Below are positions 16,439 through 40,385 of a DNA stretch of 64,000 bases, piece by piece. The notes beneath the pieces are model-generated. The model had not been told where the DNA came from. It saw only the letters and a program-made list of their open reading frames with translations, and made no database searches. Numbering within the stretch: the stretch's first letter is position 1; every line of letters starts with the position of its first letter. The translations under genes and the position numbers were made by a program. The stretch is from Cetorhinus maximus (taxonomy: Eukaryota): NCBI RefSeq assembly GCF_964194155.1, contig NC_135888.1, forward strand, positions 99,882,001 through 99,946,000, in the 5' to 3' direction.

Positions 16439-17445
16439 TTTCTACTGAAGCAGTAGTTTATATTGAGCAAGTAGTAGCTAAGTGTTGCAGTTTGAGGTGA
16501 TCCCTCCATCTATCTTGAGGACAATGGAACAGACAGGGCTCCTGAACTGCAGCACAGAATGGGGCCGAGGTTACCTAGCAGCCAGCCACTGACCAATCAG
16601 GGCGGCGGAGCCGAGGTGAGGCCCCGCCCCTCTCTCCCTGCTATATAAAGCGCTCATTAGGCAGGCAGTCAGTCTCCTGCAGTGTGTAGTGAAAGCAGTT
16701 GTTGCAACATGGCGAGGGAACAGCTCTGTAAGCTATTTGTTGGCGGGCTCAGCTTTGAAACGGTGGAAGGAAACCTGCGGAACCATTTTGAGCAGTGGGG
16801 GAAGCTAACTGACTGTGTTGTCGTACAAGATACGATCACCCGGCGCCCCCGTGGCTTCGGTTTTGTCACATATTCTTCGCCGAGCGAGGCGGATGCTGCA
16901 ATGGCTGCTAGGCCTCATGTCTTAGATGGCCGCACGGTGGATCTGAAACGAGCTGTGCCAAGGGAAGACTCCAACAAACCTGGCTTCAACATGAAGGTAA
17001 AGAAGATCTTTGTTGGCGGTATAAAAGAGAACCTTGGCGAGAATGATTTACAAAGCTACTTCTCAGACTATGGTATGATTGAGAAAGTAGATGTGATCTG
17101 TGACCGAGAGACTGGCAAGAAAAGAGGCTTTGCCTTTGTGTACTTCGATGACCATGATTCTGTTGATAAAGCGGTTATACAGAAGTACCACATGATTAAT
17201 GGCTACCGGTGTGAAGTCAAGAAAGGTTTGTCGAAGGAGGAGATGCAGAGCGGAACTAGACCTCGCGGCCGAGCTGGCAACTTTAGCCAGAGAAACGGTC
17301 GGAGTAATGGCAATTTTGGAAATGCAGCTGGGTATGGGGCCCATGGCGGCGGAGGCGGCTACTACAATGATAGAGGAAATCGAGGAGACGTCTATGGTGG
17401 TTATGGTGATGGGGGGTATCCTCGGCGTGACCGTTCCTTCTCAGG
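16439..17445 (+). repeat. About 1007-bp block identical to 38956-39962 (offset 22517)
   Basis: No mismatch seen by eye from tttctactgaagcag to ttctcagg. Alternative-frame ORFs in the track translate identically in both copies. First difference is 17446 t versus 39963 c. Confidence 0.92.
16591..16650 (+). promoter_or_regulatory. Pol II core promoter of copy 1: CCAAT box, GC boxes, TATA box
   Basis: gaCCAATcag 16591-16600, GGGCGG 16600-16605, CCCCGCCCC 16622-16630, TATATAAA 16642-16649. The ATG is 60 nt downstream. Confidence 0.88.
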
Positions 17446-17668
17446 TGGAAGTTATGGTGATCAAATTGGGAGCTATAGAGGTGGCGGTGGATACGATCGT
17501 GGAAATTTCCAGGATGCCTTTGATAACTTTGGGAGCTATTCCCCTGAGCAGTCCAACTATGGCCCCATGAGAGGAGGGGGTGGTATGGAAAAATTTGGAC
17601 CCTACAGGGGAGATTATGGTGTTAGCAATAGAAGCAGAAACAGAGATTTTGGAGGATATGCCTTTTAG
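16709..17668 (+). CDS. HNRNPA0: Intronless hnRNP A/B-family protein, HNRNPA0-like (2 RRMs plus Gly/Tyr-rich tail with M9-like PY-NLS), 319 aa, copy 1
   Basis: Open ORF from Kozak gcaacATGG. RNP2/RNP1 motifs [14 protein letters not shown] and [15 protein letters not shown]0-type residues [39 protein letters not shown] resembles M9. HNRNPA0 is the intronless member of the family. The family call is firm; the exact orthology is less so. Confidence 0.93.
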
Positions 17669-17782
17669 TTCTTTTGGGGGCGGGTGAAGGTTTAAAAAAA
17701 AAAGGGGACTGCATAGCTACAAAATGTACTCTAGTATTGCGTACCAAGAAAACTGCATACTTTTTGTTTTAACTTTTTTCAT

Positions 17783-17788
17783 AATAAA
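17783..17788 (+). terminator. Polyadenylation signal of copy 1
   Basis: AATAAA about 115 nt after the stop, preceded by a U-rich tract and followed by GU/U-rich sequence. The context is homologous to the copy 2 signal. Confidence 0.7.
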
Positions 17789-20700
17789 CTACATTGAATT
17801 TATCTCTTGTCTGTAGTGTCTCTTTCTGGGTGAAGTCTACCTGAAGATGCTCAGGGTTTTAACCCGTTGATGCTTGTAGCAGTTTTTTTGCAATTTTGTT
17901 TCCAGTTCTTTATATAAATTATGAAGTCTAACTGTTCCCAGGCGCGCACTGCATAAAAGCAGTTAATTTCCATTTTTTAATGCAGATTTCAGAGGTGAAG
18001 TGAATCCATTAATCCCTTAAATTCTCTTTTTTTTATTCCTTCATCTTTATCAATGCAAAGTAATTAAATCCTTTTTTTGGAAACTTTCTGGGGATAGTAT
18101 TTGTGGGATTTTTGTTCTGATGTCAGTTTCATGTTCGGGCCATTTGTAATTGAGGGCTTTTCAAATTTCTCTTCCTTCATAACAAATACCTGTTGCTGCC
18201 TTTCTATCCCTTAGATGAAGGGGTGGATAAGGATTTATTTTTTCATAAGTTATTGTTCTGAGTTCTCTTGTGGGGTCTGACACCATTAAAGCTTGTTTAG
18301 AATGTACCACATTAAATACACTTAAGAGTCTCTCATTCCTTTGCAGGGATCCAGGTAGTCATTTCTGGGTTGTGGTCATTATTGTGCCTGGCTGGATTGT
18401 CTTACCTGCAGCTGTTCTTCCAACAAACTTCCCTCTGACCCAACCTATCAATCACTCCTAGCCATAACCTGCAACTTTGCCATCTTTTGAATTTATGGTG
18501 CTGAGACTTGAGTGTTTTAAGTTAATATTTAAGTCTTTTACCTTGAAACTGAGCACCCAAATGTGACATTATAAATAACTAGAAACATGTTCTGCTGGCA
18601 TGGTTTAAGTTAGTAGGATAGGCCTACCATCAAGTTGGCCTTCCGGTCTAGGTGCCCCATCAGCAGGAAGCTGATTTGTGCTGCTAAAATTTAGTTGAGT
18701 TGTCAGTACTCCTTCATACTAGTAAATTTAGTATCAGTGGGTAGTAATTTGAATAGTAGAAGCAACAGCAGAGCTTTTTATCCTCCACCAATGTCTGCAT
18801 GCATGCCTGTTGGCCATATTTTTCTTCCTTTGGTTTTAATGCCATAGGCATTGAAACCAATCATAGGAAGCTCATCCCTATGTTAATTTGCATTGGCAAA
18901 ACTTGGTTCAACTCCTTGCCCTTCCTTGGCTATCTGCATCAGCATAGCAGTTCATTTTGCCCTTAAGCCTATATAACTTAGGGTGTTAGGATGCAAATAA
19001 GGGTCTGGGTGGAAGTTGAGACTTGAGAATTGTCCAAAGAAAAAGATTCCATTCCATAATGGAAATACTGATTCAACAGAATATGCATGTTGGGTATAGC
19101 AAGGGGCCTTGCTACATCCTGGGCCTTCATACTTCCAACTGTATGAGTTAATGGTTGTTTTAGCAAGATTATTTAGAATATCCAGTGTCAAAGTTAAATA
19201 GGATAGTGCAACAATGTTTGAATGGACCACAGATTAGTTGACCCCTAGAATGGAAAAGGCAAGGCAATCTAGGAAATGCATCCCTTGGAGATTGGAGACC
19301 TTTTTGTCTCAATCTAAGAACATTATGTTCTCTGCAGTCTCATATGTTCAAGGTTATCACACTGGGTAAGTATGTAATTGTACTAAAGTTCAAGGCAGGT
19401 TGTACTTTTTTTTGAAGCAGAAAGTGTAGATGAAAGGATATGGATGAATTTACAGGAAGTGAACTGGAGCAAAACTAGGTATAAGAAGTTGCAGGAAAAG
19501 TTCTTATACTGAAGATGGGAAAATGAGGTTTCATTAATGTTGCTTCAAATTGTCAAGAATTATGTGCAACTTGCAATTTAATTGACATGTATTTATCACC
19601 TAAAATGCTTGTGCTCCATTGTACTTGAGTTCAAGTAGAGTGCAGCAGCCATTTTGGTTTTGTAAGACTGCACAAATGCCAATGAATGATCTGTGCTTAT
19701 GAATGAGGAATGTTGGCCAAGATAACTACTGCTTGCATTTATATAGCATTTAACTTAACTATCAAGGCCATAAAGGAAGAACATGGATACAGAATATTAG
19801 GAACAGTCTTGGTCAGAGATGATTTCTAAGGAGAGAATTCCAGAATGTGGGGCCTAGATTCCTGAAGGTTACCCCTGCCAATATTAGTGTGAAGAGTGGG
19901 ATGCAAGAGAGGAATCTCCCTGTCTGATCAAATAGTGTCAACGAATCTTAACTCCTACCTACACCAGTGGATTAGGAAGACGTGCCTAACATCTAAAGGA
20001 CAGGTTTGGTCAACTTGGATATTCATTTAGGATTATGGTTTTCTAACTAGTTTTTGAGATGGTTTTAAATTTAGAAAATAAATTATACTTGACTATTACT
20101 GAGAATGATACCTAGCAATCGCCATGTTTTGTTTTTGTACTCCCTTGGATCATGCACTTTCCCTAGTCTAGATCGTAGCAAGTGAAGTGCATCAACTACC
20201 AAGTTGGTCTTGTCCAGTTCTCTTCTATTTCTCTTTGAGTGGTATGCTGAACTGTGACCCTTGGCACTTCTGTTTCCCAGTAAAGTAAACCTTAACCTTG
20301 TTTGATCCCCATGAGATCTATACAAGGTTGTGTAGATTAAGATTTTATTTTTAAATGTCTTATTGTCCTAAATAAAGCTGCTATTTCTTAAAACAAGTGT
20401 CTAAATAATTTTCAATGGTTAATAAACTCTCATGCTTTCCCTTCTAGGTCACTAACTGCACACTCTTCTCTCATGCAGCCCTCGAGCAAGAGTGGACAAT
20501 TTTGGGTCGCAGCTTCTCAAACACCTGCCATCATCGCTGCTGTTTGCCAGGCTGATAGAAGATGAACGTCTGAGACGGTTGCTGCACACTCCATTGAGGA
20601 GTGCCACAATTCTGCTAACCATTAAATCTTGTAGTGCATCCTTTCTACCTGCTCCACCCATGGAAAATTGGTGGGAGAGAAACACAATGCCTAAAATTGC

Positions 20701-40203: not shown

Positions 40204-40220
40204 CATGCGCATGAATTTAA

Positions 40221-40316
40221 TGTGTAAGGGGGAAGTATTTGATTTGTACACATGGCTCAAGCTAAAAGTGAATTGTGTGTAAACTGTGTAAGGGGGATGT
40301 ATTTGATATGTACACA
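40221..40316 (+). repeat. 32-bp direct repeat in the copy 2 3'UTR (40221-40252 and 40285-40316; 2 mismatches)
   Basis: tgtgtaagggggaagtatttgatttgtacaca versus tgtgtaagggggatgtatttgatatgtacaca. Confidence 0.85.
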
Positions 40317-40379
40317 GAAGTAGCTGTAAAGCTACATAATGTATTCATCTAATCAAGGATAATTGTATACTTTTTTCAC

Positions 40380-40385
40380 AATAAA
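40380..40385 (+). terminator. Polyadenylation signal of copy 2
   Basis: ttttttcacAATAAA, homologous to ttttttcatAATAAA of copy 1. Confidence 0.7.

Follow-up and report, generated by a model that had tools for sequence, protein, structure and literature searches.

Divergence peaks under gene conversion have been described for the primate red and green opsins and for RHCE/RHD (Innan 2003; Teshima and Innan 2008, as cited in PMC3924837). Region-specific conversion has also been reported in the elasmobranch sparc-L/scpp genes, tandem duplicates that go back to the elasmobranch ancestor and give split trees (PMC9122587). In heterogeneous nuclear ribonucleoproteins (hnRNPs), longer isoforms of hnRNP A1 carry an exon 7b insert (PMC9634572), and splicing of such tails in hnRNPDL alters self-assembly (PMC6996132). 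The locus considered here is situated in a 64,000-nucleotide stretch of Cetorhinus maximus DNA (assembly GCF_964194155.1, contig NC_135888.1, positions 99,882,001 to 99,946,000 of the forward strand), called the window below. It contains two intronless hnRNP A0 genes, copies A and B, arranged in tandem 22.5 kb apart, both on the plus strand. The best explanation overall, which we regard as quite probable, is an ancient tandem pair homogenised by gene conversion around a short island of the tail, the cassette, that is kept different by selection.

Copy A (16709-17668, 319 amino acids, aa) and copy B (39226-40203, 325 aa) are open reading frames (ORFs) followed by AATAAA at 17783-17788 and 40380-40385, respectively, and the original prediction of two intact genes on one strand was thus borne out. 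Its identity of about 1007 bp turned out to be exactly 1007 bp: positions 16439-17445 equal 38956-39962, and the match extends no further. This converted block includes the proximal promoter, the 5′ untranslated region (UTR), both RRMs and most of the RGG tail, up to codon 245, and identity resumes for the last ~48 codons. The 3′ converted segments (17528-17667 in A and 40060-40202 in B) contain exact runs of 65 bp (17528-17592 = 40060-40124) and 46 bp (17603-17648 = 40138-40183), both already noticed, and of 18 bp (17650-17667 = 40185-40202), which had been missed. The divergent core of the island occupies 17456-17521 in A and 39973-40053 in B, with 46 of 66 aligned bases matching and 15 gap bases. 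The interval 17446-17527 had been called barely alignable; it is indeed diverged, but it can be aligned, and its first part, 17446-17455, differs at a single base. Similarly, the picture of a constant promoter and RRM block with a variable tail is right for the block, but the variable part consists of a short cassette plus the 3′UTR, not the whole tail. The 3′UTRs (17669-17788 in A; 40204-40385 in B, with an internal 32-bp repeat) are homologous but far diverged, their alignment score being reached by none of 500 shuffles and, with stricter scoring, by 2 of 300. No homology was found between the 1-kb flanks of the copies, where 43 and 48 of 100 shuffles reached the score; faintly related 3′UTRs and unrelated flanks had both been noted earlier.

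The cassette comprises 22–29 aa of the glycine-rich tail just before the segment with DNFGSY and the putative PY-type nuclear localization signal (PY-NLS). The island directly precedes the segment that aligns to NDFGNY and the M9 region of hnRNP A1. In the window the type A cassette is 22 aa long and the type B cassette 27 aa. The make-up of each type is the same in all nine pairs compared: aromatic, acidic and basic residues number 4, 3 and 2 in type A and 6, 6 and 3 in type B, the more aromatic and more acidic of the two. Type A has YGDQ and GGYD.GN in common with coelacanth A0, and this resemblance makes it likely, as far as the sequences tell, that type B is the derived form.

The nine pairs used for site counts were those of the window and of eight named species. 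Rhincodon was excluded since its B protein is the same record as that of Stegostoma, and rows with two B proteins, single rows and partial rows were also set aside. In the head of the protein (250 columns), 41 columns are variable; at 27 of these, A and B agree within every pair although the residue changes from species to species, and no column is paralog-fixed; the distance within species is 0.009 against 0.058/0.054 between orthologs. In the cassette (29 columns), the paralogs differ at 14 columns in each of the nine pairs, no column is of the species type, and the paralogs are far apart (0.52 within species versus 0.10/0.20 between orthologs). In the C-terminus (50 columns), 3 of 17 variable columns are of the species type and none is paralog-fixed, with distances of 0.045 versus 0.089/0.111. 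The flank 3′ of the island was homogenised less strongly than the 5′ one. At its 5′ edge the island varies in extent, column 238 being different between the copies in five of nine pairs.

Trees agree with these counts. It had been predicted that RRMs would cluster by species and tails by paralog, and in fact seven of nine pairs group by species in the head tree, four of them as identical rows, while the cassette tree splits A from B with a bootstrap of 100. An all-A clade on the head was rejected (approximately unbiased (AU) test, p-AU 3.1e-8); the all-A group was defined from the cassette, after a head tree had been seen. Residues that are lineage-specific and nevertheless shared by both copies are, at the level of protein sequence, the real evidence for conversion.

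The comparison between species at the DNA level is based on one contig placement, and the remaining evidence comes from proteins. Contigs from 4 of the 24 listed sequencing runs were compared, against copy A only, including those of two related organisms, B and C. When organism B is compared with the window, the 270 non-coding bp of the block show 4 substitutions and 1 insertion and its 737 coding bp a single substitution, versus at least 33 changes in 738 bp upstream (Fisher p 0.023 and 0.001). That synonymous sites are identical is a weaker argument than originally claimed, as the block changes little between species. Since the block is under constraint in its DNA sequence as well, the identity of the copies is by itself a poor guide to the frequency of conversion. 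At the synonymous site 16861, both copies in the window have T, and the listed contigs of organisms B and C have C only. In three organisms, contigs stop at 17445, as would be expected if the paralogs differed stably at 17446. As a separate observation, synonymous change between species at 16709-17445 is very low (1 in 245 codons versus at least 4.5% upstream), and constraint at the RNA level or self-regulation is possible there. Another concerns the 3′ segment of copy A, where, at 17593-17602 immediately ahead of the PY motif, one residue is deleted and Tyr is replaced by Phe; this small change was found in contigs of organism B and is absent from the A proteins of the other eight species.

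The 35 proteins in six close clusters represent 16 named species of sharks and rays, with some further rows. A-type and B-type proteins occur together in 9 of the 16 named elasmobranch species, a pair being counted when one protein of each type was on a contig of equal length or within the same species record. Both types were found in sharks and in rays, so that the duplication predates the shark–ray split, and the description of the copies as old duplicates is supported. The elasmobranch ancestor has been dated to 265–400 million years (My) (PMC9122587). No chimaera protein was present among the best 120 matches, where identity falls from 98% to 69% or less, and the bichir and coelacanth clusters represent one locus each. 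The duplication may be older than the elasmobranchs, and it may have arisen by a retrocopy or as a segmental duplication. Adjacent A0-like genes may also exist in zebrafish; a literature look-up on this gave nothing related. The annotated isoform X2 of the A copy in Amblyraja (P0004) is without 39 tail residues, including part of the cassette, and is either a genuine cryptic splice product or a gene-model error.

The following course of events may be proposed. A single intronless HNRNPA0 would have been duplicated in tandem before sharks and rays separated. Repeated conversion would then have transferred sequence between the copies in the promoter, both RRMs, the greater part of the RGG tail and the C-terminal import signal, with the cassette and the 3′UTRs escaping it and with conversions that erase one cassette type being removed by selection. 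It is very highly probable that repeated conversion over these parts makes both copies encode the same RNA-binding module. That selection keeps two functionally different cassettes appears probable from the pattern of residues. Depending on its cassette, the low-complexity tail could differ in self-association or in the binding of partners, and we infer that the pair may yield two tail isoforms of a gene unable to splice alternatively. A more far-reaching idea can be put forward only tentatively, by analogy: for more than 265 My the pair under conversion may have taken the place of alternative splicing, and the proportion of the two cassettes would tune condensate or fibril behaviour and RNA processing as inclusion of exon 7B does in hnRNP A1. 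Selection would then hold two sequence-specific versions of one 25-residue segment of a prion-like domain.

Several observations weigh against a selected island in a frequently converted pair. Chiloscyllium plagiosum has two B-type cassettes, which means either that type A was lost in this species or that the region collapsed in the assembly; if the arrangement is real, type A is dispensable there, yet the island is convertible. Only type B was found in four species, and all six Logan proteins are of type B; these B-only counts are tempered by the fact that the window's own A protein is likewise absent from the protein collection. Two further species are uninformative, one being frameshifted and one partial. 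The A heads of Mobula and Hypanus cluster together (91/89), so that conversion is slow or patchy in these two. Between species, too, the block evolves slowly, and conversion therefore need not be frequent. Finally, indels in the cassette could hinder conversion without any selection.

Among the rival explanations, an error of assembly or polishing has in its favour that the 1007-bp match is perfect and that the DNA run X1, which speaks against it, may be the assembly's own sample and hence tests polishing rather than a second animal. In X1, one unbranched contig spans exactly 16439-17445 at a depth of 23.1, and the depth elsewhere is 10.1 in the upstream flank, 12.5 in the A cassette, 9.9 in the B cassette and 14.6 in the downstream flank, contig depth not being a strict copy number. 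Copy-specific variants within the block would be expected to break this contig, which has the same ends as the block and about twice the flank depth, so that a polishing artefact is ruled out; the artefact that would have counted against the original prediction did not show up. The same A+B pair in records of nine other species also contradicts an artefact, and we give this explanation practically no credence. An account without conversion, by extreme nucleotide constraint or by recent or repeated duplication, could refer to the small number of changes that separate organism B from the window within the block, namely 5 substitutions and 1 insertion. Constraint cannot explain why both copies bear identical lineage-specific residues at 27 columns, a recent duplication cannot yield cassettes shared with rays, and zero differences between the copies were observed versus about 6 expected (P = 0.0025, assuming the ortholog rate). 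It is contradicted by the site counts and the AU test, as far as protein comparisons reach, and is scarcely credible.

The main rival accepts conversion and treats the island as a neutral accident: an early indel would have blocked conversion locally, the cassettes would be interchangeable linkers, and the pair would be kept for dosage. The 15 gap bases in the cassette alignment, the short 3′ homology flank, the promoter common to both copies, the B+B species and the four species with B only are all compatible with this. Each cassette, however, is conserved among orthologs (0.10 and 0.20) with a fixed and differing make-up in 9 of 9 pairs, conversion is active on both sides, and the B+B case, if real, would show that the cassette can be converted and that no mechanical block exists. 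We consider this explanation rather unlikely. Alternatively, regulation may have been selected, with the cassette riding along; the strongly diverged 3′UTRs and a CpG-rich element upstream of A only would fit. About 48 converted codons separate the cassette from the 3′UTR and make it an island of its own, and selection on regulation alone seems to us very improbable.

The assignment to HNRNPA0 needs some comment. Both proteins have two tandem RRMs (RRM_1, two stretches) followed by a glycine-rich tail, that is, the hnRNP A/B architecture, with a full-length match to hnRNP A1 (E 2.4e-82), and the exact protein of copy B is present in the protein collection. In the RRM tree (31 of 32 rows, without the Oryzias row), the pair and three A0 rows are set apart from A1/A2B1/A3 and the outgroup with moderate support (bootstrap 88) and long branches. 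Both copies are single ORFs, and an intronless coding sequence is a trait that we take to be typical of HNRNPA0. The RRMs are 62–67% identical to three A0 proteins and no nearer to A0 than to A1/A3, and most source records label these elasmobranch proteins A3-like. RNP1 is RGFGF in the pair versus RCFGF in all four A0 rows. Residue 84 (codon 16958-16960 in copy A, the same codon in B) is Pro in all elasmobranch rows, Ser in coelacanth and Ala in two ray-finned A0 rows. Ser84 of mammalian A0 is described as an MK2 phosphorylation site (PMC9314375), and this switch is probably absent in elasmobranchs, given their Pro.

The surroundings of the pair correspond to those of HNRNPA0. An intact 377-residue ORF of a Y1-subfamily neuropeptide Y (NPY) receptor (L017, 5756-6886, minus strand) is situated about 70 kb upstream, on the strand opposite to the pair; by its position, this receptor is presumably Y6. 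A KLHL3 exon lies about 160 kb downstream on the same strand, and beyond it, about 380 kb downstream, there is an exon for a SPARC_Ca_bdg domain, with SPOCK1 as candidate identity. The position between the NPY receptor gene and KLHL3/SPOCK1 matches the mammalian order, which in sheep is SPOCK1, KLHL3, HNRNPA0, MYOT (PMC6884434). Judging from the RRM tree and synteny, copies A and B are co-orthologues of HNRNPA0. They are like HNRNPA0 of bony vertebrates in the two RRMs with a G-rich tail, the single ORF, the position in the RRM tree and the neighbouring genes, and unlike it in being two, with distant RRMs, RGFGF in RNP1 and Pro84. A search of the 4.0-Gb genome gave 37 matches, the window pair being the only two close and unbroken (intronless) ones, and no third copy was found in this search or in 264 kb around the pair. 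The same genome has another tandem array of RRM genes at G000:C5:165954181-166170386, with seven RRM matches in about 216 kb, four of them with identical scores. Oryzias melastigma possesses an expanded A0-like set on several contigs (P0152 and P0245-P0254, most of 442–476 aa); the one protein inspected has three RRM-like units.

The promoter motifs are arranged alike in both copies: CCAAT at 16593, GC boxes at 16600 and 16622 and the TATA box, TATATAAA, at 16642 in copy A (16593-16649), and CCAAT at 39110, GC boxes at 39117 and 39139 and TATATAAA at 39159 in copy B (39110-39166). The CCAAT, GC-box, TATA and AATAAA motifs are read here in their usual meaning. The main 5′ end of copy A is probably near 16675, where a deep contig of the probable-RNA run X16 starts, bearing in mind that contigs cannot prove a start. 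Copy A alone has a CpG-rich element at 16050-16400 (GC 0.56, CpG observed/expected 1.06, versus 0.39 and 0.71 upstream of copy B), a possible second promoter or enhancer. A probable-RNA contig of organism B starts at 16371, and at 16371-16675 such contigs of organisms B and C extend upstream of the TATA box, which suggests a minor upstream start near this element. The two runs guessed to be RNA come from organisms B and C and not from the window's own organism; their contigs represent the gene and hardly any of the unique flanks, both cassettes are present in each run, and X16 reaches on into the 3′UTR of copy B. It is probable, therefore, that both copies are transcribed in these relatives. 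The 3′UTR of A has no cover in either run; this was not taken as evidence, and depth was not used to rank the copies.

Other features of the window are of a different nature. A 670-bp head-to-tail duplication at 59296-60643 is 99.7% identical (2 differences in 678 bp) and is either very recent, allelic or an assembly error. At 28297-29180 and 13101-13285 there are long imperfect palindromes (83% and 78% self-identity) that resemble non-autonomous transposons; their ends are found again at other places in the window. A 1.4-kb repeat is present in inverted copies at 35142-36563 and 50095-51544, which are 74% alike and have decayed frames that we take to be LINE-like.

The literature searched gave no report of this pair or of its conversion, most subscription papers and all supplements being outside the search. 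The pair may be regarded as a natural experiment that singles out the 25 residues of importance in a disordered hnRNP tail, everything else in the protein being constant. This makes it testable whether the exact sequence of a low-complexity segment, beyond its make-up, sets function, and the conservation of both types suggests that one short disordered segment gives two proteins different jobs. For annotation, the consequence is that such genes are mostly labelled A3-like and that an age estimated from identity would miss the true one by hundreds of millions of years. The conversion would also have been sustained longer than in the cases treated in a review (30–200 My, PMC3924837).

Long-lived conversion around a protected island is a known process, which is here very old and concerns a low-complexity domain. 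The three sequence properties of a divergence peak that are known from the opsins (PMC3924837) are found in the pair: in the converted region the distance between paralogs is smaller than that between orthologs, two of nine pairs lagging behind; within the peak it is larger; and the peak is narrow, 22–29 aa, with converted sequence on both sides. The opsins, as presented in that review, are likewise a tandem pair about 24 kb apart, whose converted parts group by species and whose narrow part groups by ortholog, and they are read as selection restricting conversion (PMC3924837). However, their age is 30–40 My, their conversion takes place mostly in introns, and their protected sites belong to a folded protein and have a known function (PMC3924837), whereas the hnRNP A0 pair predates the shark–ray split, has its coding sequence and promoter converted and keeps its island in a low-complexity tail. 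In sparc-L/scpp, conversion is described in sharks only and affects a few exons of two very different genes (PMC9122587), in contrast to sharks and rays and about 90% of the protein in hnRNP A0. Exon 7B of hnRNP A1 and the low-complexity exons of hnRNPDL resemble our case in that one RNA-binding module is combined with alternative G/Y-rich tails (PMC9634572, PMC6996132), and the insert of A1, which ends 10 residues ahead of the NDFGNY segment, overlaps the cassette in position. There, exons are included or skipped, whereas here two genes bear substituted cassettes of similar length, so that the likeness is one of working and not of membership.

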